A DNA stretch of 32,000 nucleotides from Trichodesmium erythraeum IMS101 (lineage in GTDB: Bacteria; Cyanobacteriota; Cyanobacteriia; Cyanobacteriales; Microcoleaceae), in assembly GCF_000014265.1 (NCBI RefSeq), contig NC_008312.1:3090001-3122000 (forward strand), written 5' to 3'. The position numbers and the translations under genes were made by a program. Each line of letters starts with the position of its first letter. Position 1 is the first letter of the stretch. Below the pieces are notes generated by a model. It worked only from the letters and a program-made list of their open reading frames with translations. It made no database searches and was not told the DNA's origin. Shown here one piece after another: positions 1 to 11,582 of the stretch.

Positions 1-757
1 AGGGTCGCCACTGATGCGGCGATCGTAAAACAGAACGCAGACTCCCCTCCTCATCAGCACGATTCGGACGAGGATTGTTCCTTTCCAGAACCCCAAAAGT
101 AGATATGGCATAAAATTGTAAATTATTCTTAGGAATCCTCTGGCGCAAAATTTTTCTAGTGCGGGGCAAATGTACTTCAAATAAGTCCAATTCCGGGTCC
201 AGACGACCAGGCCAAATTTCTCCCCTTTCGCATTTACTCATTGCCACTGCCAGTCGCAAATTTTTTAGGCGATCGCGCCTGTCCATTAAATCCATAAATC
301 TCCCTATCATCCTCCTGTAAAATTGGTCGTTGCCCAACTCCCATTTATGGAGGAGCAATAAACAGCCAACAATATCTGGAATTAAACATTCATTGAGAAA
401 TTCTTGATGTATTTCATTAGAAATTCCCGAGGCCAAATCGTCAAAAATTTCCCCTGGATAATCTCGAACCACTAAATTGATTTCCTCTGGTTTGCGCCAC
501 CTCCTCTTTTTTTCTATTTGAAAAGAATACAACGGTAAATCGTAAACAGTTTTAATTTTGAACCCATCTATCTCTGTCCTCCTTAAAGAATCTCCACTAA
601 GAATAATATCTTCAGCTTGATTTACTAAATTTTGTGCCTCTTTTGTGATAGGAGTAACTTCAAAATTTTGGTTATGAGTATCCGGCCAATATGCCAGTCC
701 TGCCAGATAAGTTGTTTTGCCAGAACTCCTCGGTCCGATAATACAAATATTTCCCAT
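1..757 (-). CDS. P-loop GTPase-like protein, first 252 codons; the ORF continues past the left window edge (second gene of a GTPase pair)
   Basis: Absent from the ORF track because no stop lies in the window. My minus-strand translation from ATG 755-757 reads MGNICIIGPRSSGKTTYLAGLAYWPDTHNQNFEVTPITKEAQ...LVVRDYPGEIFDD...LAVAMSKCERGE... Motifs: G1/Walker A GPRSSGKT, G3 DYPGE (DxxG), and SKCE where NKxD is expected. GGAGGAGG Shine-Dalgarno at 762-769. The ATG lies 14 nt after the stop of the upstream ORF. Confidence 0.6.
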   Translation of the reverse strand, partial: MGNICIIGPRSSGKTTYLAGLAYWPDTHNQNFEVTPITKEAQNLVNQAEDIILSGDSLRRTEIDGFKIKTVYDLPLYSFQIEKKRRWRKPEEINLVVRDYPGEIFDDLASGISNEIHQEFLNECLIPDIVGCLLLLHKWELGNDQFYRRMIGRFMDLMDRRDRLKNLRLAVAMSKCERGEIWPGRLDPELDLFEVHLPRTRKILRQRIPKNNLQFYAISTFGVLERNNPRPNRADEEGSLRSVLRSPHQWRP

Positions 758-770
758 ATTTCCTCCTCCA

Positions 771-1517
771 TTAATTAGCTAAATAACTAGCTAAATAGAT
801 CCAGGGCAACTCCAGCAAACTACGATCATAGATACTGGTAATAAAACAGCGAACTGATAACCCAGGCCGACTCCTATTTATTTGTGCTATTTGGGATTTT
901 ACCAATCGAAAATAACTATTAACTACATAATTATGACGCTGAAGCCAATTCATCGAAGAACCATCTGGTCGATAAGCCAACCTTTCCGACTCCTCAGAGA
1001 GATTGCAATTTATTAGATCCGCCTTGTTCAGACAAATAACAATATGCTTGGCCTTAGGACAATCATCACAAAAAAATCTAGCCCAACTCTCAAAGCCATT
1101 ACACCACTGCTTTTGAGTCACAAAATTTGTCACCTCCAGATTAGGCAACAATATTTCCCGATAAGGTGGCAAAATCAGCAAAACCCCCTCGCTTTGCCGG
1201 ACAATTTCTTGAAAAGATTCCCATTCCTGGGGGTGTTCCCACTGCCAAGACCTACGAAAGATTTCCCCTGGAGAGTCGATCCAATCTACGGGAACTTCGT
1301 TTAAACCACTAGGCAACCGTACTTGGAGGTTTAGGGGACGATATTGGATGTTTTGAGTTTGTTTGGCCGTTCCATCGCTATTCAGGAGATTGGCCTTAAG
1401 GTTTTGATAAGTTTGGCCCACCATAGAAACCTGGACGTATTGCCCCTGGGGATTAACTAATTCTAGGGCTAAATGAGTTTTGCCTACCGCGCGATCGCCT
1501 ATATAGACGACTCCCAC
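771..1517 (-). CDS. TRAFAC-type GTPase-like protein (first gene of a GTPase pair)
   Basis: 248-aa ORF. Motifs: G1 GDRAVGKT, G3 DSPGE (DxxG), canonical G4 NKAD. I see no resemblance to Era, Der, Obg or translation factor signatures. Confidence 0.7.
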   Translation of the reverse strand: MGVVYIGDRAVGKTHLALELVNPQGQYVQVSMVGQTYQNLKANLLNSDGTAKQTQNIQYRPLNLQVRLPSGLNEVPVDWIDSPGEIFRRSWQWEHPQEWESFQEIVRQSEGVLLILPPYREILLPNLEVTNFVTQKQWCNGFESWARFFCDDCPKAKHIVICLNKADLINCNLSEESERLAYRPDGSSMNWLQRHNYVVNSYFRLVKSQIAQINRSRPGLSVRCFITSIYDRSLLELPWIYLASYLAN

Positions 1518-2205
1518 CTTGATCCTCCCTGCTTTTAATTTAAAATTTTCATATTATATCAAATTGAACAAAGAAGCGAGGGGGCTCTCAACAGGAGTTA
1601 GGAGGCACGAAGAGTTCATTTCTACATTGAACATTTACCCAAGTACGTTCGTGATGCCTTCCATCTCAATGGAAAGGAACTCCATGAGGATGTCAAAAAG
1701 CATATTCAAGAATCTTCAGAAAAACGCAACTACGATCGCCAGGCAAAAATTGCAGCATCTCATCATTCCCCAGAATACTAAGCTTTTAGAGTTCATAAGA
1801 TTTCCAAAACTCAAAACTTTAACGCGCTCAGTAATTTGAGGAATTTATTTAACATTTGCTGTTAATAGTCATTAGTGTTACCTAAGTTGATAAAGTTGAT
1901 ATCAGCCTATATTAGTAATAATAGGTTTCCATATCTGCCTTTAAAAAAAAATCTTAATAATCAGAAAATTTTAGAGTAATATTGTTAATTAATTAAGCAT
2001 TTAACCTACTTAATTAACCGCTAATTTATCTCACAGTAAATCACAAATTATGGTGTTAGATAAAATTTGCTTAATTTCATAAAAAAAAATTCTCTTCAGC
2101 AAAGGCTGCAAATATTCCTGAATACTCTTTCCTCCTAACTCCCAATTAACCATCTAATTATACAAATTATGCCAGATTGAACATCAGGCAAAATAGTGAC
2201 TTCAG

Positions 2206-2802
2206 CTAACTAACTAAACTAATTAAAATGCCGAAAATTTTTGATAAATTATTGAGAGAATATTCTTCTAAGTCTACAATTATAGTTTCAGACTCTAGCT
2301 CTAAAAATTGCCAAACCGTTCCTGTGGTGACAACACCATAAACTTTATTAATATTGTTGCCTTTTCTTTTATTAAAAAGTTGAGCTGCTAGCATTTCTGC
2401 AATGCATTGGGAAAATCCAGACTTAAGATTATCGTTTTTTGCTTCTACTAAAGTAATAACTGGTGCTTCAATAATAAGTTGTCTAGTAGAACGGCTAATA
2501 ATAAAATCACAAAAACCGTTTAAACCTTGGTCAGGATTAACATTAAATTCTATTCCTGAAAAAATGCTAATTTGATTATTTAGCTGTTTCTTTATATCCA
2601 CTAAAATGGGCGCTAAAATTAATTCTGAACGAGCTTTTTCTGAACCGATAGCAACTGCTAAAGGTATATATTCTTTCAAAAGTTCTTGTATTATTTTACT
2701 GGGAAAAATTTCAGGATAGTTGTTAAATTTTCCCTGAAATTCGACTAAATTTAGATTAAAGTTTGTTAGTAATTGCTCTAAGCTGAATTTACTATAAGAC
2801 AT
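2206..2802 (-). CDS. Standalone PD-(D/E)xK nuclease-fold protein, HsdR N-terminal-like domain
   Basis: 198-aa ORF with the ordered motifs SEKARSELILAPIL ... GFCDFIIS ... ITLVEAKNDN ... FSQCIAEM ... GVVTTGTVWQF. This is the D...(E)xK core plus the trailing Q and TxG-W-F typical of type I restriction R-subunit N-terminal domains. Confidence 0.6.
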   Translation of the reverse strand: MSYSKFSLEQLLTNFNLNLVEFQGKFNNYPEIFPSKIIQELLKEYIPLAVAIGSEKARSELILAPILVDIKKQLNNQISIFSGIEFNVNPDQGLNGFCDFIISRSTRQLIIEAPVITLVEAKNDNLKSGFSQCIAEMLAAQLFNKRKGNNINKVYGVVTTGTVWQFLELESETIIVDLEEYSLNNLSKIFGILISLVS

Positions 2803-2808
2803 TTGTTT

Positions 2809-3244
2809 ATTTCAGGTTTCAGGTTTCAGGTGTTAGGTTTTAGGTTTCAGCTTTTAGGTTTCAGGTCTAAAAATTAATAAATTGATAACATCTTACTACC
2901 AAATTTATTAGTTTTAGCCACACCGTTAAATCTTCATAACTTTTTACTTCAATTATTTCTTAGGCGTTAGGTATTAGGTATTAGGTTTTAGGTTTCAGGT
3001 CTAAAAATTAATAAATTGATAACATCTTACTACCAAATTCATTAGTTTTAGCCACACCTTTAAATCTTCATAACTTTTTACCTCAATTATTTCTTAGGTG
3101 TTAGGTATTAGGTGTTATCTTTTAGGTTTCAGCTTTTATATTTCAGGTCTAAAAATTAATAAATTGATAACACCTTACTACCAAATTAATTAGTTTTAGC
3201 CAAACCGTTACATCTTCATAACTTTTTACTTCAATCATTTTCTA
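2809..3244. repeat. Composite tandem repeat: three 99-bp core units (2864-2962, 2998-3096, 3146-3244), each preceded by a heptamer array (TTTCAGG/TTTTAGG/GTATTAG variants)
   Basis: Direct reading. The core GGTCTAAAAATTAATAAATTGATAACATCTTACTACCAAATT.ATTAGTTTTAGCCACACC.TTAAATCTTCATAACTTTTTAC.TCAAT.ATTT recurs three times with few mismatches. Unit periods are 134 and 148 bp because the heptamer arrays differ in length. Confidence 0.9.
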
Positions 3245-3310
3245 TCTTTGCTCTTAAAACCTAAAACCACCAAGCCTACTAAAACTTAAAATATTTGTGA
3301 GTGCTAATAG

Positions 3311-5065
3311 TCAGTTAATAACTAATTTTTTAGCAATAGGCATCCGCCAACCTGTGCCAAAAGCGCGAGTACTAATTTTCAAACCTGGGGGTGCTTGTCT
3401 ACGTTTAAATTCTGCCCTCATGACTAATTTTACTACCTTATTTACCACCTCTAAATCATGTCCTGCAGCAATAATTTTGTCTAAAGATTCGCACTTTTCT
3501 ACTAACCTAAATAAAATATCATCTAAGACTTCATAAGCAGGTAAAGAATCCTCATCCTTTTGACCTTCTTTTAACTCAGCACTGGGAGCTTTTGTCAGTA
3601 TATTTTTGGGAATAATATTTTGCTTTTCAGTCATTAGTAAGTTTTGGGATCCAGAGAATTTTTTATTGTTATTAACTGTCTGTTCATTCAACCACTGACA
3701 TAAAGAATAAACCCGAGTTTTCGGCACATCTGAAATTACTGCTAATCCACCATTCATATCACCATAAAGAGTACAATAACCAACAGCCATTTCTGACTTA
3801 TTGCCTGTAGATAAAAGTAAATAACCAAACTTATTAGAAATAGCCATTAATAAATTTCCACGAATCCGAGATTGAATATTCTCTTCAGCAATACCAAAAT
3901 TTGTACCTGTAAATAAACTTGACAGACTATTATCATAATCCTTCATTAAATTCTCAATAGATATAATTTGTTTAGCAATACCCAAATTTTCTGCTAATTC
4001 TAAAGCATCTTTTACCGAATGCTCAGAACTGTAGGGAGAAGGCATCAAAATAGCAAAGACATTTTCTTTTCCTAATGCAGCAGTAGCGATCGCTGCAACT
4101 AAAGCTGAGTCTATTCCTCCACTTAAACCCAGAACAACTTTAGAAAAACCACACTTTTGTACATAATCTCTTAGGCCTAAAACCAAAGCAGACCAAATTT
4201 CTTCATCCTCACTTTCTGGCAAATTTATACTTTTAAAATCTACTGAAATGAAATCTTTTTTTGCTGAATTAAATTCTACAACTGCCAAACTTGTCTCAAA
4301 AGCTTGAGCACGATAAACCACATTTCCAGCACCATTAAAAACTACACTACAACCATCAAAAATTAAATCATCATTACCACCCACTTGATTGACATAAATA
4401 ATTGGTATTTGATAACAATTTGTACTATGTTTTAACATTGCTTCTCGCAATTTTTGTTTTCCAGTTTGATAGGGAGAAGCTGACATATTAATCACAAAAT
4501 CAACTTTTTGTGCTGCTAATTCTTTCATCGGGTCATAAGCATAATTTCGTTTTCCCCAAAAAGCCTCATCATTCCATAAGTCTTCGCAGATAGTTACACC
4601 TACTTTAGCTAAATTTTCTGAGCTGTTAGAATAATTTTCTAACGTGAAAAAATCCCTAGTTTTACCAGGTTCAAAATATCGGTCTTCATCAAATACATCA
4701 TAAGTAGGTAAAAGTTGTTTATGAAATACTTGTTTGATTTCGCCATTGGTTAATAAAACTGCACTATTAAATAGTGATTTTTCTCCTGTATTAGCGGCTT
4801 GATAATTAAAGGTTACAGTTCCTACTAAAACGGCTATTTCTGATGGTAAATATTTGGCTAAATTTTCTAATTCTAGAACTGCAGCTTCAATTAAACTAGG
4901 ATAAATTAATAAATCTCGTGGGGGATAACCTATTAATGATAATTCTGGAGTTATCATCAACTTAGCATCTAATTTTTTTGCTTTTTGTGCAGCATCCAAA
5001 ATTAATTTGGCATTGCCTGAAATATCACCAATCACAGGATTAAGTTGAGCAATTGCAATTTTCAT
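3311..5065 (-). CDS. nadE: Glutamine-dependent NAD(+) synthetase
   Basis: 584 aa. N-terminal CN-hydrolase (glutaminase) domain with VGVTICEDLWN. C-terminal NAD synthetase domain with PP-loop GLSGGIDSALVA. Length and architecture are typical of two-domain NadE. Confidence 0.95.
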   Translation of the reverse strand: MKIAIAQLNPVIGDISGNAKLILDAAQKAKKLDAKLMITPELSLIGYPPRDLLIYPSLIEAAVLELENLAKYLPSEIAVLVGTVTFNYQAANTGEKSLFNSAVLLTNGEIKQVFHKQLLPTYDVFDEDRYFEPGKTRDFFTLENYSNSSENLAKVGVTICEDLWNDEAFWGKRNYAYDPMKELAAQKVDFVINMSASPYQTGKQKLREAMLKHSTNCYQIPIIYVNQVGGNDDLIFDGCSVVFNGAGNVVYRAQAFETSLAVVEFNSAKKDFISVDFKSINLPESEDEEIWSALVLGLRDYVQKCGFSKVVLGLSGGIDSALVAAIATAALGKENVFAILMPSPYSSEHSVKDALELAENLGIAKQIISIENLMKDYDNSLSSLFTGTNFGIAEENIQSRIRGNLLMAISNKFGYLLLSTGNKSEMAVGYCTLYGDMNGGLAVISDVPKTRVYSLCQWLNEQTVNNNKKFSGSQNLLMTEKQNIIPKNILTKAPSAELKEGQKDEDSLPAYEVLDDILFRLVEKCESLDKIIAAGHDLEVVNKVVKLVMRAEFKRRQAPPGLKISTRAFGTGWRMPIAKKLVIN

Positions 5066-6370
5066 AATTTTTACTGAAAAGTTTGGTCTGAGCGATCGCT
5101 CTTCTAGGGCGACTTTGTAAATTCGTTTTTATTTTATTAATATGTTATCATATTATTAATTTATAAAACTATTAAAGGTACATTTAAGTACCGTATATAT
5201 CCCATACTCGGCAAAAAATAAGATTATTAAAGTTGTTTGCTTATATCTATTTTCTTTATAAGAATAGTCTAGGTTGGTGCTAATTAAAATACAAATTATT
5301 TTAGAATAAAAATAACTTATATGAGCCACAAAAAATATTTATTACCAAACCTAAAAAACTCGAAAAAAGCAATCTCAAAATGGGAAATAACTGTACCTTA
5401 AAGTCAGCTATCAGCTATCAACTAGAAAAAAAATTAGTCTCAAAAAAGAATTAAAAGTCTGACACCGAAAAGATGATCAGCTAAACTTCATCTTTTTGGG
5501 CAGCATGAGCTAGGAAAAGCGCTCAAGCTGACTTCTAAAGTGCTGAATGGTTACAAATAATTTTATAACTGATAACTGAATTGGAAGCTAACTATTAATA
5601 TTTGATTTGATATTTGATTGTGTAAAATACTATTCAGTGATGTTTTACGATCACAAATCTAATATAGCAATTAGTCATGGCTTGGCTTTAGTCAGAGAAT
5701 CTAACGAAATATCAAACGAAAGATAATTGGAATTTGCTCAAAAAGCAAAATCTACCGTGCTTGGTAAAGAACTACAAAAGCTTGTGCAGAAAGTAATACC
5801 CAATTTTCCCAAGTCAATTTCGGAAATTGTTGCCTCAATAATATTAGGTGACATTACCTTCGTTGAATTAAGAAAATGGAAATCTCTTTACTAAATAAGA
5901 CTATGTAAAAAATTAAAGATAGATGTAGTGAGAAAAACTTGGAAAAGAGATTGACATCTATATCTTCCCTCCTATCAAGAAACACTTACAGACTGAGTCA
6001 ATGACATAATTGATGAAATTAACGAAAATTACTTCAATTATGTCAAACATACAAGCTAACAGATTTGACAATGAAAAACCTTGACATTAAGACAGTTCTG
6101 ATTGATCCTACAAATATTAGTCGTAACATTGATGTCAGACAAGGTTTTGGGGATGATGTATTCAGTTTGCTTGATGCTTTTATAGTTATAGTAACAGCAA
6201 TTTCATGGTATTCTAATGTATGTAGCACTTCCCAGTTTAATTGCAGGTATTGTGCACATGCTCGATGGGCTGTTTTAACTTTTTAGTTGCATTCAGTATT
6301 TTCACACTTATAGCGGTCGGCTTAGATATATGGCTTTCAAAAAATACTAGAATTTCAGTTGCCTAAGCTC

Positions 6371-6530
6371 ATGCATAGATCAGATGAGTGTGCTCCGTGC
6401 CGAAAGCCGAAAAACCAGAAGACAATTCTTACTACACCGGAGCTGGTGACCAAACCATTTATCTGTGACGATCTGCTGACCTGCAACAACCCTCACCCCA
6501 TTAAACCATAAATGTGCTAACCCTAATTAA
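6371..6530 (+). repeat. GC-rich dispersed element, copy A; contains a 46-codon ORF (6371-6511, MHRSDECAPCRKPKNQKTILTTPELVTKPFICDDLLTCNNPHPIKP)
   Basis: An island of roughly 50% GC in about 30% GC DNA. Segment 6437-6530 aligns in reverse complement to 11373-11466 at about 80% identity, including an exact 22-mer (6473-6494 = rc of 11407-11428). The reading frame and TAA stop are shared by both copies. Confidence 0.6.
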
Positions 6531-7022
6531 TAGTCAAGTTGTAATTGACTTGTTGGATAAATTTCGTCAATATTTATCCATACCTAATCAGATGGAAAAA
6601 TATACACATTATCATAGGTTAAATAGCGATCGCCTAATCAAATACATTAGACAATTAGCCTTTTGGATTTTTTGCTTTTAGCAAATATTGAATTATCGAT
6701 CATCCTACTCTCAAAGATGTTAATTTATAGCAGTCGCTATTACTATTAGAACATTCTCACGGTTTTCAAATTTAGTTACAAAAAAAATTTAATCTCGCAT
6801 CTTGTGACTTCTGAGCTCAGCTATAAATATCTATTTCTGTGCTATAGTTACTTTAATGGCTGTGGCAACTTTACTTATACCTAATGAATTGAGCCATTTT
6901 TTTCATTCTGAGTTAAAATTTTTATCGTTGGAATTAGAATGAATTTGTTCTACTACGCTTACCAATGTTTCGTGCTTTATTCCTGCTTCTGAATAAATTA
7001 ACCAGCGATCACTATATGGAGT

Positions 7023-7568
7023 TTACTGTAATTTTTTTGTCAAATATTTACTGGGATTAACCCTTGGAATTGAGCCTTCCATCCTAGATCTACGACTAGG
7101 AGTTTCACAAATTAACCTTAATTTCCAGTTATAAGTTGTACCTACTTTTAGTTCTGGTTGTTCCCTAGGAATTTTAATATTTATAATTCCCTGACTCTCA
7201 GGTAATAATGCTTTATTTTGATATACCTTTTTTTGACTAGAATCTTTTAGGATAAACTCTCCAACGATAGCTTTATTTTCTGGCACATAAATAAACATTT
7301 TTGGATGTGATACTAGGGTTACTTTTAATTCTGGTTTTTTGTTTTTTTTCGGAACTAGAGGAGTTATGGTTTTTTTCTTACCACTAAAGCATGGCGTTCC
7401 TCGTGTTCCTCCAGGGATACTATTTTCTGTACCTTCATCAGTCTTTGGAGTCACGTTTGCAAACGCACCTCTTGACAAAAAAACAGTAGATAATCCCAGA
7501 AATAATAATGTCAGAATAAAAGTTTTGGGTTTGAGGAAAGATAGTAATTTGATGTGATGAATACTCAT
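7023..7568 (-). CDS. Secreted DUF928-like protein, apparently truncated by an in-frame TAA
   Basis: Signal peptide (LTLLFLGLSTVFLSRGAFA). Then PGGTRG, ITPLVP, PKMFIYVP, GEFILKD and the Y-W-x-L-x-L-x-C pattern as I recall for DUF928. The same frame stays open for 39 more codons after the stop (6903-7022). Confidence 0.65.
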   Translation of the reverse strand: MSIHHIKLLSFLKPKTFILTLLFLGLSTVFLSRGAFANVTPKTDEGTENSIPGGTRGTPCFSGKKKTITPLVPKKNKKPELKVTLVSHPKMFIYVPENKAIVGEFILKDSSQKKVYQNKALLPESQGIINIKIPREQPELKVGTTYNWKLRLICETPSRRSRMEGSIPRVNPSKYLTKKLQ

Positions 7569-7623
7569 AGTTAGATAAGGTTTGTATTTTTTCTACTTAA
7601 GACTTGCCAAAATAATCTTTTGG

Positions 7624-7665
7624 TAAGAGTAGGAGTCATAAGTCAGGAACCAGGAGTCAGGATAA
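7624..7665. repeat. Heptamer tandem micro-repeat (about six units, consensus AGGAGTC)
   Basis: Direct reading: TAAGAGT AGGAGTC ATAAGTC AGGAACC AGGAGTC AGGATAA, in the spacer upstream of the DUF928-like gene. Confidence 0.75.
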
Positions 7666-7986
7666 ATAGAAATTCTAGAGGAGCTGATAGGATACATTTG
7701 TCCCTTAATTTTCCTGCCATAGTTAACTTAAGATGCTAACTTTTTGGCTCCTCAGACTCCAAAAGCTATACTTTATTTCTCTCCAAAAAAAGTACCTACC
7801 TTTATCTTTCAAGACTTTTAGATTCAATCAGCACATTTCGATCAATTCAATCAGCAAATTAATAATTATGGTTTGCTTGGACAGTATTTTCCCTAAACAC
7901 TTAAAACTTTTTATTTAATTTTTAGCTTATTAATATCAGTTTGTTACTCAACAGACAATTTAAGAAGAAATTATCAAATTTAAAAA

Positions 7987-9918
7987 TTATTTTTTACCAC
8001 TAACCAAATATATACTAATCGGTTTTGTCTTCCCTTTCAGACAAAAATTACCCCAAAATTCTACTTTAAATTTTCCATCTAGATATTTGAAAGTTTCCTC
8101 AGCAATCAAAACTCGACAAATTCTTCGATGATATTCCTTCTCAAAACTTTCTAACCGGGAAGCAATATTAACACTATCACCAATTACTCCATACTCTAAG
8201 CGATTTTTTCCTCCTAAACTACCAACTATTATGCTTCCTGTATAAATTCCTACCCGCATTTTTATTTCTGGATCACCCTGTTTTTGCCACTGACAATTAA
8301 ACTTCAACAAATATTCTTCCATTTCTAAAGCACAGTTAACTGCATTTTGAGCATCCATAGCAATCTCTTCAACAGTATTACTAGGTACTGGTATACCAAA
8401 TACTGCCATTATTCCATCTCCAGTAAATTTATTGACTATTCCATTATGATTAATCACAATATCTGTCATAGCACTCAGATATTGATTTAACCAGATCATT
8501 AAAACTTCCGATGTTTTTTTTTCTGAGATAGTGCTAAAATTTTTTAAGTCAGTAAATAAGATAGTTGCTGTAACTGTTTTTGCCGGTAAAATTCCAGAAT
8601 TAATCAACTCTGAACGTTGTTGCCAAAGAGCATTAGCAATCTCTGGAGAAGTTTGCTGACCTAATAATTTCATCACCAGATTTTTCTGTTGCCATGATTC
8701 ATGCATGTTATAAACTATAACTATCCCACCTGTAATAACCATTCCTGCTAATGGTGCTACCACAGGAATCCACTGCATATTTATAAAAATACCATAACTA
8801 ATACCACCTAAAATACTAAAACTCAGAAAATTTATTAACATCCAAATCATAGGTTTCCTGATATACCTAGTCAGACTAGCACCAACAATTGACCAAGCTA
8901 TAATCCATAGTATTTCTATTGATTCATTCCAGTATGAAAATAGCTTTCTATCATCAAGAACTGCACTAATAATTTGACTTGTAATATGTGCATAAAGCTC
9001 GACTCCTGCCATTCTTAAAAACTTTGAATTACCAAAACTATAAGGAGTCCAAAATAAGTCATTGCTACTAGGAGCTGTAGTCCCAATCAAAACAATTTTA
9101 TTTTTGACTAATTTAGGGTCAAAATTATTATTTAAAACATTAGTTATGCTAACTTTGGGAGCAACAGATTTAGAATTACGATAATTTATTAAAATTTTAT
9201 ATCCTGTATCATCAATTCTTTGGTATCCCCCTGAATTTGATTTTAATTCTTTAAATAATACATCACCTAATTTATATTCATTATTTTTAGTGACAACCGG
9301 CAATATTCCATAATCTTTCAGGTAAGTAATAGCTAATTTTAAAGAAAAAGCTGTGAATGTTTTATTTTTATGAGAAGTAAATAATAAATAACGACGAATT
9401 ACACCATTCGGATCAAGATTAATATTATTAAACCCAATTCTTTCTTCTGGTATTGTGGGAGGTGGCAATACTGTTTTATCAAGATCTCTGTGAAGATAAG
9501 TAATAGCAAAAATATTCGGTTTTTTCAATTGTTCCAATAATTCTGACTCACCAGGCGGATAAGGAATATCTCGATAAATATCTAGACCTATTACTTTAGG
9601 TTGATGCTTTTGTAGAGATACTAAAATTTTGGCCAAAGTTTTATCGGAGATTGGCCACTGCTGTAAAGACTGAATATCCTCTTCAGTTATCTCTACTATT
9701 AGAAGCCGAGGATCTGGCTCTTCCATTGACCGCAAACGCATCATCAAATCAAATACTGCTAGTTCTAGTGGTTGGAATACTCCTAAGTATCTGAAAAATA
9801 GTAAACCGAGGATAGTAAAGCTAGAAAGGGTAATTACTGGTATTGGTATCCTTAGAGAGTTAATTTTTTTATTGATGCATTGCCAAAAATGTATAAGTCC
9901 CATAATTTTAATAGCCAT
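7987..9918 (-). CDS. CHASE2 sensor-domain class III adenylate/guanylate cyclase
   Basis: 643 aa. N-terminal TM helix, long extracytoplasmic region, three TM helices (about residues 340-400), then a cyclase catalytic domain with ATILFTDLKNFSTISE, KFTGDGIMAVFG and GVIGDSVNIASRLES. Confidence 0.9.
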   Translation of the reverse strand: MAIKIMGLIHFWQCINKKINSLRIPIPVITLSSFTILGLLFFRYLGVFQPLELAVFDLMMRLRSMEEPDPRLLIVEITEEDIQSLQQWPISDKTLAKILVSLQKHQPKVIGLDIYRDIPYPPGESELLEQLKKPNIFAITYLHRDLDKTVLPPPTIPEERIGFNNINLDPNGVIRRYLLFTSHKNKTFTAFSLKLAITYLKDYGILPVVTKNNEYKLGDVLFKELKSNSGGYQRIDDTGYKILINYRNSKSVAPKVSITNVLNNNFDPKLVKNKIVLIGTTAPSSNDLFWTPYSFGNSKFLRMAGVELYAHITSQIISAVLDDRKLFSYWNESIEILWIIAWSIVGASLTRYIRKPMIWMLINFLSFSILGGISYGIFINMQWIPVVAPLAGMVITGGIVIVYNMHESWQQKNLVMKLLGQQTSPEIANALWQQRSELINSGILPAKTVTATILFTDLKNFSTISEKKTSEVLMIWLNQYLSAMTDIVINHNGIVNKFTGDGIMAVFGIPVPSNTVEEIAMDAQNAVNCALEMEEYLLKFNCQWQKQGDPEIKMRVGIYTGSIIVGSLGGKNRLEYGVIGDSVNIASRLESFEKEYHRRICRVLIAEETFKYLDGKFKVEFWGNFCLKGKTKPISIYLVSGKK

Positions 9919-10324
9919 TAACCCTCTTGGAATCAGTTTTAAATAGTTGTTCTCGACACTTACAGCAGATTTTAAGATAGCTATGAACTACAAACATTAA
10001 ACAAGAGCTCCCCGGTTCAGGGGACATTTTTTAATCAAATCTTTGTAGCGCGCACATTTTTCCCCCCATATTTGTACCCCACTCTTCATAAAATTTGCTG
10101 TACATACTAGTTCATATACATATAAATTAATGTTGAGAACAAAAGCATTAAGATTATTGAATTTCATCTCAGTTTACGGAACAACACACTTCAAAGCTTT
10201 TCCCAACTATCAGGCGAATTTTTACTTGTGTTTTTTTTAACACATATGTTAATGTTTTACTCATTAATTAGTCTAAAGCGGAAAGTCCGAGGTAAAAAAC
10301 GAATGCACCAGATAAAAAGTTTAA

Positions 10325-10471
10325 CTAGGATTAAAGTTTCGCACTCGCGACTTAAATTGCATTAAGCCTGTGGAGCGCGTAGCGTATGCTAAGTGCAAAA
10401 CGTCAACCCGCCCTTGAGAGCAAACCTAACAGTGAATCCCCCTTGCACCTGACAGTCAGGAAGGATGTCAA
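10325..10471 (+). mobile_element. Possible relic of an IS200/IS605-type tnpB 3' end plus guide-RNA scaffold and right end
   Basis: An island of roughly 50% GC. Frame remnant KFRTRDLNCIK resembles the RuvC-III motif of the intact TnpB in this window (KFSCDRDLNTALN). About 100 nt of GC-rich sequence follows, with a GTGCAA...TTGCAC closing stem. Next is a 13-bp palindrome CCTGACAGTCAGG (10448-10460), and the segment ends in TCAA at 10468-10471. No intact ORF. Confidence 0.3.
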
Positions 10472-10912
10472 TTAGTCATGCCTAACACCATCTGGCATTA
10501 TTGTGCCAGTGAGAATTGCTCCTTCTAAACTAGCTCCTTCCAGATTTGCTCCCCCCAGATTTGCTCCTTCTAAGTTTGCTCCTGATAAATTTGCTCCGAC
10601 CAAATAGGTACCTCCAAGGTTTGCTCCAGCTAAATAAGCTCCTTCTAAATTAGCACCCTCCATATAAGCTCCTCCAAGATTTGCCCCTCCTAAGTAAGCT
10701 CCTCCCAAGTAAGCTCCTCCAAGGTTTGCTCCTCCAAGATTTGCTCCTCCTAACTTAGCTCCTGCAAGGTTTGCTATTTGTAGTTTTGCTTCCCCAAGAT
10801 TGCCTCCTCCTAAATTGACCCCTCCTAGTCTAGCTCCTTCTAGATAGCAGTTTGGACACTCACGAGTTTCTAGCAAAAGTCTAATGTTTCGTTCTACTTG
10901 TTGGTTAATCAT
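10472..10912 (-). CDS. Pentapeptide-repeat protein
   Basis: 146 aa dominated by about 25 consecutive A(N/Y)L(G/E)G(A/G) pentapeptides. Confidence 0.9.
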   Translation of the reverse strand: MINQQVERNIRLLLETRECPNCYLEGARLGGVNLGGGNLGEAKLQIANLAGAKLGGANLGGANLGGAYLGGAYLGGANLGGAYMEGANLEGAYLAGANLGGTYLVGANLSGANLEGANLGGANLEGASLEGAILTGTIMPDGVRHD

Positions 10913-11372
10913 TATTTGGAATAATTAAAATTTAGGGTAACTATTTATAACTATAGTGAGTAATATCCTGAGACGGAAGTCAAAACTCAACATTCAACAG
11001 TATTAATTAGTAATAAGCAATTACCATAGATTAATACTATACTTGGGTGACACTTCAATTACGAAGAGTATTTAGGCGATCGCATATAGAAATCTACTGA
11101 ATGATAAGTAATATAATTCCGATCGCGTCTTAGGGACAAAACCCTGTTCAAAAGCTCAAACATCAACAAATTATTCGAATATACACTAATTTATCAATGC
11201 TACTAGATTTGATATCATAGACACATAACTCTTGTTATAGTTCTCACAGCAGTTTTAATATTTGTCTTCCTCAAAGATCAGAAAGTGCATCAAACTTTAC
11301 TGCTACAAAAGTAGCAGATAATTTTAGTGACGTTTGTGGCATAAATTTTTAGGATGACTCGCTTATTTAACT

Positions 11373-11466
11373 AGAGTTAGCACATCTATTTATTGTATAG
11401 TGGGTAGAGGGTTGTTGCAGGTCAGCAGGTCAACACCGATAAATCCCTTGGTCACCAGTTCCGCAG
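11373..11466 (-). repeat. GC-rich dispersed element, copy B (decayed, no start codon)
   Basis: Reverse complement aligns to 6437-6530. Equivalent frame gives ...KKKYLIPAELVTKGFIGVDLLTCNNPLPTIQ* with the stop at the same aligned codon as copy A. A TGA lies just upstream and there is no ATG. Confidence 0.55.
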
Positions 11467-11582
11467 GAATTAAATATTTCTTTTTTCAAATTCTTGATAA
11501 GAAGTTTCATGTAATTTTCTATATGATTTTTCGGACATTTCTATTACACATAAATAGTTTTTATCATATTACATTGTCTCAT

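Follow-up and report, generated by a model that had tools for sequence, protein, structure and literature searches.

Three GTPases and three membrane proteins in a conserved cyanobacterial operon, apparently an undescribed distant cousin of the predicted double-GTPase conflict systems

The closest described relatives of the locus analysed here are the DO-GTPase (double-GTPase) systems, which were predicted computationally (Kaur, Burroughs, Iyer & Aravind, eLife 2020; PMC7159879). A DO-GTPase is defined as a TRAFAC GTPase with a conserved Walker B glutamate (DxxGE); N-terminal zinc ribbons or TM segments are frequent on these proteins, if not universal, and two paralogous DO-GTPase genes are adjacent in 38 % of the systems. 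GAP1 is situated downstream, with GASH (N1 type) or an FNIII-repeat protein (N2 type) nearby, and the GAP1-N2 systems show a kinase/PP2C/vWA theme. According to that paper, hardly any of the systems are found in cyanobacteria, and only actinobacteria have the kinase theme (PMC7159879). We found no experimental study of DO-GTPases in the searchable literature, as had been anticipated in an earlier, sequence-only reading of this DNA.

The window, that is, the whole stretch of 32,000 nt that was analysed, comes from Trichodesmium erythraeum IMS101 (contig NC_008312.1, positions 3,090,001 to 3,122,000), and its first 1,517 nt contain two genes on the minus strand. Gene A (771..1517, 248 aa), recognised from its ORF and sequence, has a GTG start, is the first gene of an operon and ends with a TAA codon at 773..771. 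After a spacer of 13 nt (758..770, minus strand; tggaggaggaaat), gene B (1..757) starts with an ATG at 757..755 and is cut by the window edge after 252 of its 272 codons. This arrangement, read directly, is exactly the one described in the sequence-only reading, including the second ORF running off the window. The spacer contains a Shine-Dalgarno-like sequence (GGAGGAGG, 769..762, minus strand) 4 nt 5′ of the ATG of B, and we infer from the spacing that A and B are translationally coupled. A second Shine-Dalgarno-like sequence (AGGGAGGA, 1530..1523, minus strand) lies 5 nt 5′ of the GTG of A and is kept as AGGAG in L007, an 85 %-related locus. Alignment of the upstream regions showed that the sole stretch conserved with L007 upstream of A contains a candidate −10 box, TATAAT (1553..1558, minus strand), ca. 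36 nt 5′ of the start of A, with a putative promoter function. A generic promoter scan upstream of A did not place the TATAAT region above chance, the sequence being AT-rich, and a generic terminator scan was likewise at chance level. The only Rfam hit in a search for regulatory RNAs upstream of A was SAM_alpha, sub-threshold and on the wrong strand.

The product of gene A, a cytoplasmic protein with no TM segment, contains G1 (GDRAVGKT), Walker B/G3 (DSPGE) and G4 (NKAD) motifs, and the part of B translated from the window contains GPRSSGKT, RDYPGE and SKCE. Intact GxxxxGKT and DxxGE motifs in both ORFs and a divergent G4 had all been noted before. There are 363 homologs of A, with identities of 50–97 %. 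The residues of G1, G3 and G4 show little or no variation among members of the A (77), B (70) and C (62) families, the last being encoded by the gene next to B, and the Walker B glutamate (D..GE) is invariant in the same sets of sequences. Given these homologs and the near-invariance of the motif residues in three families, A and B are genuine genes and not chance ORFs. A GTG start in A and the incompleteness of B within the window could be taken as signs of chance ORFs, or of pseudogenes decaying at a contig edge; this has a negligible probability and is ruled out by contig L001, 99.98 % identical to window positions 1–11517, where both genes are intact and B is seen complete with 272 aa, and by hundreds of homologs in which the catalytic motifs do not vary, and the structure models are confident.

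The window holds only the 5′ end of the operon, with the last 20 codons of B and everything beyond falling to its left. The operon had been suspected to be incomplete here, and extending it leftwards on L001 gave A-B-C-D-E-F-G, in which C is a gene of 298 aa situated past the window edge, next after B. The core consists of six genes, A-B-C-D-F-G, with D duplicated in this organism to give E. The order A-B-C-D(xN)-F-G was found in nearly every one of 80 cyanobacterial loci with enough flanking sequence, with B directly after A in 71 of 74 and C present in 57 of 62, so that the pairing and the gene order, whose conservation the sequence-only reading had made a point of checking, do extend across genomes. 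The short A-B spacer is conserved as well (median 16 nt across 79 loci), and the median gaps are −6 nt (an overlap) between B and C and 5 nt between C and D. The core proteins are 50–60 % identical across cyanobacterial orders, with identity roughly tracking taxonomy. A-G is a conserved, cyanobacteria-restricted operon with three GTPases and three membrane proteins in its core. Its closest relative, L092, is chromosomal and has the short six-gene form without a kinase tail, followed by HisS/HisG. No contig with an identical A protein reaches more than 0.8 kb past G, and a metagenome scan with G for sequence past this gene in Trichodesmium found none.

Beside A, the window also contains a PD-(D/E)xK gene (2206..2802; PADLOC PD_DExK, 1.5e-53) and a tandem repeat (2828–3240, three copies with a period of 134 nt), both as previously reported. 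The gene appears in only one of 80 related loci (L007) and the repeat is not conserved with the cassette; both were therefore excluded from the system.

B and C share 35 % identity (E = 1e-52), a G4 variant ([ST]KCE, where A has the canonical NKAD) and a common C-terminal tail (WxP[YF]G..P.YWL), which in B is a conserved W-x-P-Y-G...P-L-Y-W-L lying partly beyond the window edge. In all three GTPases the P-loop starts within the first 10–30 residues, and none has Cys clusters or TM segments. C scored 42.5 bits with DO-GTPase2 and 34.6 bits with DO-GTPase1 (Pfam PF19993 and PF19975, respectively; gathering cut-off 27 bits), and among the best 120 homologs listed for C, all of them cyanobacterial, nearly all carry a precomputed PF19993. 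The match of B to DO-GTPase1 is marginal (27.6–27.7 bits), and DO-GTPase1 was matched by all 33 B-family members scanned (E ≤ 0.01, best 2.2e-9). A reached only 15.3 bits with the same model, although a few of its homologs have precomputed PF19975 or PF19993. A was also below the Pfam cut-offs for Roc (21.6 bits, cut-off 27), Ras (15.8, cut-off 21.6) and Gtr1_RagA (13.6, cut-off 22). A profile search identified 101 representatives of the A family among 1.84 billion proteins and retrieved no B, C or other DO-GTPase. A had been considered unrelated to B, which holds at the level of BLASTP (E = 0.024) but not for profile-profile comparison with hhalign, where the probability was 96 % for A-B and 97.8 % for A-C (E = 8e-13, 194 columns). 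Models of housekeeping GTPases (Era, Der, Obg, YihA, HflX, FtsY/Ffh and others) gave no full-length equivalog match to either A or B; since the best NCBIfam scores, of 10–15 bits, are far below cut-offs of 42–640, the two proteins stay apart from the housekeeping GTPases, as first proposed. In the AlphaFold2 model of A (pLDDT 90.7) the 248 aa make up one G domain. Its closest structural matches by Foldseek were RagA chains (TM about 0.4–0.5), namely 6u62_B (4.5e-7), 6s6a_A and 7t3b_D, with further matches to Rab, Ras, Rho and Arf; the similarity is at the level of the fold only.

Sequence comparison thus identifies B and C, not A and B, as the paralogous pair, and A, from a small isolated family with a Ras/Rag-like predicted fold, is the third GTPase and the more divergent one. 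The idea of a double-GTPase module is kept in that B matches DO-GTPase1, and has to be moved by one gene, with A under threshold. It is improbable that A and B themselves make up a paralogous heterodimer at the core of a DO-GTPase conflict system, as their adjacency across a 13-nt spacer with a Shine-Dalgarno-like site, their near-constant succession, the GxxxxGKT and DxxGE motifs of both, and the DO-GTPase1 scores of B and, weakly, of A could suggest. Against this, the close paralog of B is C, the similarity of A to B by BLASTP is minor, the profile of A reaches no member of the other families, and three loci (L018, L024 and L026) contain a solo A gene without B or C.

The other core genes code for membrane proteins. 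D is bitopic: a cytoplasmic three-domain module of ~500 aa is joined by a single TM helix and a disordered linker to helical repeats in the periplasm. In its model (pLDDT 86.6), an N-terminal domain with the order beta-beta-alpha-beta-beta-beta-alpha is followed by an alpha/beta domain, a helical domain and the TM helix; by our reading of the DSSP string, the first domain would have the strand and helix order typical of longin domains. Foldseek searches with the whole protein against PDB and BFVD returned nothing at E ≤ 1e-3, the best leads being TagF (E 0.18–0.5) and the FLCN GAP complex (0.94), neither of them significant, and the D model had no significant longin, roadblock or DENN match. 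A longin/DENN-like nature of TagF found no confirmation in the literature checked and is not relied on. In some members the periplasmic repeats resemble domains that bind peptidoglycan, with weak PG_binding_1 matches in 5 of 30. D is present in one to five tandem copies, and its C-terminal half is divergent. F is predicted to be polytopic (about 5–6 TM helices) and ends in an FHA-like domain, whose match to FHA is weak (Ki-67 FHA, E = 0.04) and which in this family has Gly-Ser instead of the canonical Gly-Arg. G is predicted to be a secreted periplasmic vWA domain with a C-terminal TM anchor; the vWA fold is matched in PDB at 1.8e-7 and the MIDAS is complete, with an invariant DxSGSM...T...SDG. 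The periplasmic parts of these proteins vary far more than the cytoplasmic ones.

The cassette resembles the DO-GTPase systems in several respects. B and C are adjacent paralogous TRAFAC GTPases with the Walker B glutamate; directly downstream lies D, a large multi-domain protein with a C-terminal TM segment and wall-binding-like extracytoplasmic domains; the cassette is membrane-proximal, with TM components; extended clusters contain vWA proteins, PP2C and a (zinc-ribbon) Ser/Thr kinase; and a constant core is combined with variable or multiplied components (D, lipoproteins) and with plasmid mobility. It differs in having three GTPases rather than one or two, A being from an isolated family with NKAD, in the lack of an N-terminal zinc ribbon or TM segment on these GTPases, and in the constant presence of F and G in the core. 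Additionally, D occupies the place where GAP1 would be, with no similarity to GAP1-N/M/C by Pfam HMMs. The GAP1 models gave no match in D or E (E ≤ 1) or in D from Trichormus variabilis, and the GAP1-N1/N2/M/C models gave none in 30 D-family members (E ≤ 0.1). Neither GASH nor FNIII was found in D, E, F, G, the downstream lipoprotein and small-protein families or the full T. variabilis cluster. Since these partners were not detected, the cassette is not filed as a member of the DO-GTPase systems, and in this point the sequence-only reading did not hold. A search of PADLOC-DB v2, also recommended there, returned no match for A, D, E, F or G, and for B and C only noise at 10–12 bits. Literature searches with ortholog locus tags found nothing, and those by keyword only Kaur et al. 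and general kinase/FHA papers. The cassette is apparently an undescribed distant cousin of the predicted double-GTPase conflict systems.

In many genomes further genes are appended to the core, for lipoproteins and a serine hydrolase, for additional vWA proteins, and for FHA, PP2C and Ser/Thr kinase proteins. The lipobox proteins, of ~300 aa, occur in one to five tandem copies, and the larger clusters also include a class-A beta-lactamase/PBP-like serine hydrolase and an ARC6-like IMS-domain protein. Because the closest relative of the window locus lacks the kinase tail, we regard this as an add-on and not as part of the core. A and C are found together on the same eight plasmids, four of them mobilizable and two conjugative; a tblastn search of plasmids with C identified only these eight cyanobacterial ones. 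The vWA-FHA-PP2C tail is present on all four plasmids viewed whole, with a Ser/Thr kinase next on three; for the fourth, from Tolypothrix, the view ended at PP2C. On this plasmid the cluster adjoins MoxR, GUN4, caspase and SUMF1 genes and a HigB toxin. About half of plasmid B from Trichormus variabilis ATCC 29413 (35.7 kb) consists of the cluster, and one MAG contains four loci. A phage origin was discarded, A having no tblastn match in 50,697 phage records. The plasmids, the several loci in one MAG, the tail and the Tolypothrix neighbours point to a mobile or conflict-type element, as do the tandem copies of D and of the lipobox proteins, the variable periplasmic parts and the A-domain fusions described below.

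Eight loci have, immediately upstream and in the same orientation, a gene for a VirD4/TraG-like ATPase of 524 aa (T4SS-DNA_transf, 1.3e-15), a Gloeothece plasmid has nearby genes for an "ATP-binding protein" and for a protein with a T4SS DNA-binding domain, and two of the host plasmids are typed as MPF_T conjugative. The cassette might belong, as an accessory, to the machinery of conjugation or secretion, perhaps as a module that couples or regulates a type IV-like system. We consider this very unlikely, with the ATPase missing from most loci, including the window and its closest relative, with no other T4SS components within the conserved gene order, and with the cassette also present on a non-mobilizable plasmid of 35.7 kb.

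The extended clusters ending in vWA-FHA-PP2C-Ser/Thr kinase also resemble known phospho-signalling modules. The threonine-phosphorylation pathway of the T6SS consists of PpkA/PppA/Fha1/TagF, and Deinococcus DRA0331-0334 is an operon of the vWA - Ser/Thr kinase - FHA - PP2C type (bioRxiv 10.64898/2026.01.23.701218). As in such operons, the cassette pairs a periplasmic vWA with cytoplasmic phospho-signalling, and the weak top structural matches of D, which are not significant, are TagF proteins. However, the known modules have no GTPases, and in the cassette the kinase tail is outside the core.

The mycobacterial operon fhaA-fhaB-pstP-rodA-pbpA-pknA-pknB is an FHA-PP2C-PBP-kinase cluster, and by analogy the cassette could be an accessory module for cell-envelope signalling or morphogenesis, sensing or regulating peptidoglycan or outer layers, and not a conflict system. 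This alternative is possible, if doubtful. It would be consistent with the PG_binding_1-like periplasmic repeats of some D members, with extended clusters that combine the beta-lactamase/PBP-like hydrolase, the ARC6-like IMS protein and lipoproteins with FHA, PP2C and kinase, with a highly conserved core whose identity roughly follows taxonomy, with the chromosomal, housekeeping context of L092, and with the lack of a toxin-like effector and of a PADLOC match. Conversely, the eight plasmid records, several of them mobilizable or conjugative, the multiple copies in one MAG and the tandem amplification of D and the lipoproteins, with fast-diverging periplasmic parts, argue against it. So do the MoxR, caspase and SUMF1 neighbours on the Tolypothrix plasmid and the fusion of A domains, in some proteins, to NACHT/AAA_35 and CHAT; fusions to Ser/Thr kinase are also known.

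The best explanation of the cassette as a whole, which we hold with about even confidence, is that of a GTP-gated trans-envelope switch, with a conflict or defence role as the most likely one. B and C would form a heterodimer which, with A, would dock onto the cytoplasmic module of D, a protein that would take the place held by GAP1 in the DO-GTPase systems. The periplasmic vWA, the repeats of D and, in many genomes, the variable lipoproteins may sense an event in the envelope, and the binding and hydrolysis of GTP could act as a switch or timer rearranging the membrane complex. In the larger clusters, this switch would be wired to the vWA-FHA-PP2C-Ser/Thr-kinase module. The least secure step is the conflict or defence role, understood as in Kaur et al. 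(2020), which is plausible but unproven. In its favour, the kinase/PP2C/vWA tail parallels, by analogy, the GAP1-N2 theme (PMC7159879). Against it, the core shows more conservation than a typical arms-race locus, and L092 is chromosomal and has no kinase tail; no PADLOC match was obtained for A-G, no enzymatic effector or toxin domain is recognisable in the six-gene core, and GAP1, GASH and FNIII are absent from the search results.

There is also some likeness to Rag GTPase heterodimers on their longin-roadblock platforms (Ragulator/GATOR/FLCN) and to bacterial MglA-MglB. The model of A is nearest to RagA chains, several related GTPases are encoded alongside a membrane-tethered scaffold, and the first domain of D may show the longin-typical order of elements. 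A differs from Rag in having no C-terminal roadblock domain and in its sub-threshold scores with Gtr1_RagA, Ras and Roc. This resemblance, drawn from models, is a lead and not evidence of homology. Extending it, a Rag/Ras-like A and a DO-GTPase heterodimer regulated by a membrane-tethered, longin/DENN-like platform (the N-terminus of D) could be a new, self-contained small-GTPase machine of prokaryotes and constitute an unrecognised cyanobacterial immune system, a reading that we consider tentative and rather unlikely. Through this platform, sensors in the periplasm (vWA and peptidoglycan-binding) would be linked to a GTP switch in the cytoplasm, and the immunity would be of an abortive-infection or envelope-surveillance form.

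These results indicate that a cassette related to the DO-GTPase systems, whose set of partners is different and larger, is widespread in cyanobacteria, in contrast with the reported near-absence of DO-GTPase systems from this group. These partners are a third GTPase, a scaffold other than GAP1, a polytopic protein with an FHA-like domain, an anchored vWA and, often, a PP2C/kinase tail. The cassette occurs in filamentous and unicellular cyanobacteria, including the bloom-formers Trichodesmium, Microcystis, Nodularia and Dolichospermum, and plasmid B of T. variabilis ATCC 29413 offers a tractable entry point. If the platform reading were true, the logic of several GTPases on a platform, of the Rag-Ragulator kind, would exist in bacteria, and if the scaffold D were a longin-like GTPase platform, it would bear on the prokaryotic roots of GTPase-platform signalling. 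Should the cassette serve in defence or envelope surveillance, it would bear on the phage-host dynamics of ecologically important cyanobacteria.

ORF A (1517..771, minus strand) starts with GTG and encodes a protein of 248 aa with the N-terminus MGVVYIGDRAVGKT and the motifs DSPGE and NKAD; the motif AGGGAGGA can be read on the same strand 5 nt upstream of its start. A 13-nt spacer, tggaggaggaaat, separates its TAA stop (773..771) from the ATG of ORF B, at position 757, which is also on the minus strand and leaves the window after 252 codons (MGNICIIGPRSSGKT...RDYPGE...SKCE). A re-reading of the sequence confirmed the earlier description of two same-strand ORFs with a 13-nt gap and G1, G3 and G4 motifs. 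The 690-nt gap upstream of A contains an antisense ORF of 106 aa with a TTG start (1519–1839, plus strand), which was called on no contig, lies in a stretch not conserved in an 85 %-related locus, and is probably spurious.

Beyond this gap there is a gene for a standalone PD-(D/E)xK protein of 198 aa (2206–2802, minus strand), with a strong match to the PADLOC model “PD_DExK, cas-associated” (1.5e-53), no Pfam match and no cas genes seen nearby. Of the related loci, only that of the closest relative (L007/L092) also has this gene, in the opposite orientation relative to A. A tandem repeat (2828–3240) of three units of 134–148 nt, built from TTAGGTx-like heptamers, is situated between this gene and that for NAD synthetase (3311–5065), and its copy structure varies slightly between contigs that are otherwise 97–99 % identical. 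The genes for a DUF928 protein (7023–7568) and a CHASE2-guanylate/adenylate cyclase (7987–9918), also upstream, both on the minus strand and annotated from an identical contig, appear unrelated to the cassette. The window has a G+C content of 33 % and 13 HIP1 sites.

The exact A protein is present on 22 contigs, the longest of which, L001, is 99.98 % identical to positions 1–11517 of the window and is therefore a legitimate leftward extension of it. On L001, B is complete (272 aa) and is followed, on the same strand, by C (298 aa, with an 8-nt overlap with B), D (L001 12474–15104, 876 aa) and its paralog E (L001 15367–18039, 890 aa), both left of the window, and then F (362 aa) and G (about 481 aa). 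The three GTPase genes are intact and look co-transcribed. The first ca. 117 residues of D and E are identical and the remainder is about 58 % identical, with different periplasmic C-terminal halves; judging from these sequences, the tandem pair looks like a recent duplication or gene conversion. A protein 99 % identical to D is annotated in T. erythraeum IMS101.

When one genome was scanned for each GTDB species, 102 A loci were confirmed, and the 80 that were retrieved are all cyanobacterial, from Trichodesmium, Okeania, Hormoscilla, many Nostocales, Microcoleus, Spirulina, Arthrospira, Microcystis, Geminocystis, Prochloron, Pleurocapsales and Leptolyngbya-like forms. Using tblastn and ORF assignment, the order A-B-C-D(xN)-F-G was found in almost all loci with enough flank, with median spacings of 16 nt (A-B), −6 (B-C), 5 (C-D) and 42 (D-F), and with up to five copies of D in other genomes (loci L029 and L080). 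In 71 of 74 loci, B comes directly after A, so that homologs of the two genes are co-located and the refuting condition set for the proposed module does not hold; C was found in 57 of 62. In the other three loci, A (67–71 % identical) stands alone, with B, C, D, F and G all absent, and is situated amid housekeeping genes (MutS2, FtsW/RodA, DUF4335, DUF3038, permease) in Trichodesmium-related MAGs (loci L018, L024 and L026), indicating that A can exist outside the cassette. The closest relative, locus L092 (85 % identity in A), consists of A-B-C-D-F-G alone; unrelated genes come next, and after them HisS/HisG, so the Trichodesmium cassette is probably the short form. The module is real, with a core of six genes, three of them for GTPases: the sequence-only reading of a coupled double-GTPase-like pair was right in part, and the object is larger than could be seen at the window edge and differently organised.

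B and C are clearly paralogs by sequence comparison (35 % identity, E=1e-52), and have in common a conserved C-terminal tail, W-x-P-[YF]-G..P.YWL. C passes the Pfam thresholds for DO-GTPase2 (42.5 bits) and DO-GTPase1 (34.6 bits); B exceeds the DO-GTPase1 cut-off only marginally (27.6 versus 27 bits), the match being found in all 33 of 33 members of its family (best 2.2e-9). A is under every Pfam threshold (Roc 21.6, Ras 15.8, DO-GTPase1 15.3), and none of the curated housekeeping GTPase models matches A or B. By BLASTP, A and B are barely similar (E=0.024); comparison of family profiles related A to C over 194 columns with a probability of 97.8 % (E=8e-13), and A to B with one of 96 %. The motifs GxxxxGKT and D..GE are invariant in the three families, the Glu of the latter being the “Walker B glutamate” that is a hallmark of DO-GTPases (Kaur et al., eLife 2020, PMC7159879). 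NKAD is kept in 76–77 of 77 A sequences, and the aligned position in B and C is [ST]KCE. The AlphaFold2 model of A is a single G domain (pLDDT 90.7, pTM 0.89), to which RagA chains are the closest PDB structures (4.5e-7), with Rab, Ras, Rho, Arf and G-alpha ranking next. An exhaustive search of 1.84 billion proteins with the A profile identified only 101 representatives, with no B, C or other DO-GTPase among them. They include fusions (P0242, P0262, P0299, P0307, P0243, P0249 and P0278) in which the A domain is preceded by a Ser/Thr kinase or by AAA_35 and/or NACHT, or is N-terminal to a caspase-like CHAT domain.

D is a bitopic scaffold, with one half in the cytoplasm and the other in the periplasm. 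It had no Pfam, NCBIfam or PADLOC match, and all 340 homologs that were detected are “hypothetical proteins” of cyanobacteria. Its structure model (pLDDT 86.6) contains a beta-beta-alpha-beta-beta-beta-alpha domain (residues 1–126), an alpha/beta domain (144–235), a helical domain (247–486), a single TM helix (about 506–532), a disordered Ser/Pro-rich linker and helical repeats (610–870), with weak PG_binding_1 matches in these C-terminal repeats in 5 of 30 members. In our own reading of the model, rather than as the result of a tool, the element order of the first domain would be that of longin domains; Foldseek searches of PDB and BFVD returned nothing significant for D, the best being TagF (E=0.18–0.5) and an FLCN GAP complex (0.94). 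F is a polytopic partner, with about 5–6 predicted TM helices within its first 210 residues; no other protein of the six-gene core is a candidate membrane effector. The profile of its conserved C-terminal domain weakly matches the Ki-67 FHA domain (E=0.04), with Gly-Ser in place of the canonical Gly-Arg, so phosphothreonine binding cannot be assumed. G is a periplasmic vWA protein, with a predicted signal-like N-terminus and C-terminal TM anchor, an invariant MIDAS motif (DxSGSM...T...SDG) and a profile matching solved vWA domains (1.8e-7).

A and C occur together on the same eight cyanobacterial plasmids, four mobilizable and two conjugative. On the plasmids of T. variabilis ATCC 29413 (plasmid B, 35.7 kb), Gloeothece PCC 7822, Tolypothrix PCC 7712 and Nostoc linckia NIES-25, the operon runs on past G, although not all add-on genes are on every plasmid. 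These are one to four lipobox lipoproteins, among them one that has an ARC6-like IMS domain; a serine hydrolase resembling class-A beta-lactamases and one or two vWA proteins, neither apparent in the N. linckia annotation; a 127-aa protein and a further vWA protein; an FHA protein and a PP2C phosphatase; and a TPR Ser/Thr kinase whose N-terminus weakly matches a zinc ribbon, the Tolypothrix region being covered up to PP2C. A shorter version, A-B-C-D-F-G-127aa-vWA, is found on plasmid pNsp_h of Nostoc sp. ATCC 53789 (L089), where a divergent gene for a dynamin-family protein (L089 10298–12943) adjoins the cassette. In eight chromosomal loci (e.g., L059 8414–9988, L055, L063 and L053), a same-strand gene for a 524-aa VirD4/TraG-like ATPase (T4SS-DNA_transf, TrwB_AAD_bind and TraG-D_C domains) ends immediately before A; it is absent from the window. 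On the Tolypothrix sp. PCC 7712 plasmid (L090), MoxR, GUN4, caspase and SUMF1 genes and a HigB toxin adjoin the cluster; the set directly upstream (L090 1900–12400: MoxR ATPase, two GUN4-domain proteins, caspase-family, SUMF1/FGS and WD40) is similar to the VMAP/MoxR-vWA ternary conflict systems that Kaur et al. described.

According to Kaur, Burroughs, Iyer and Aravind (eLife 2020, PMC7159879), a DO-GTPase system is defined by a Walker-B-Glu GTPase or a paralogous pair of them, in many cases bearing zinc ribbons or TM segments at the N-terminus; by a GAP1 protein of three domains, of the N1 or N2 type, encoded downstream; by a GASH or FNIII-repeat protein; and by variable effectors. The same authors report such systems as nearly absent from cyanobacteria, and find the combination of kinase, PP2C and vWA in GAP1-N2 systems in actinobacteria only. 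The cassette has in common with them the GTPase family (B and C), the Walker-B Glu (A, B and C), a large, TM-anchored protein of three domains directly downstream, a membrane-proximal character and, in its long form, the kinase/PP2C/vWA theme. Unlike them, it has no detectable GAP1, GASH or FNIII, whereas a third family of GTPases and two membrane proteins are constant additions. Since, additionally, PADLOC did not recognise the cassette and we found no published description, we file it in neither described subsystem and regard it as a new variant of this type of system.

We are highly confident of this architecture. By their paralogy, and by analogy with DO-GTPases and Rag, B and C may form a heterodimer; gene order, co-conservation and the position of GAP1 suggest that the GTPases would dock on the cytoplasmic module of D. 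The variable periplasmic parts may sense the envelope, with GTP-dependent switching of the membrane complex and, optionally, its coupling to phospho-signalling. That the cassette is a GTP-gated trans-envelope switch with a role in conflict is an evenly balanced proposition: its presence on plasmids, its occurrence in several copies in one MAG, the fact that D and the lipoproteins are tandemly amplified and have diverged, the fusion of A to NACHT and CHAT, and the Tolypothrix plasmid neighbours argue for a conflict role, whereas the absence of a toxin domain, a strongly conserved core that roughly tracks taxonomy, and the wall-related accessory genes argue against it. The last of these fit a role in envelope homeostasis, a physiological alternative that we consider less likely. 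The cassette is an apparently undescribed variant of a predicted, experimentally unexplored class of systems.
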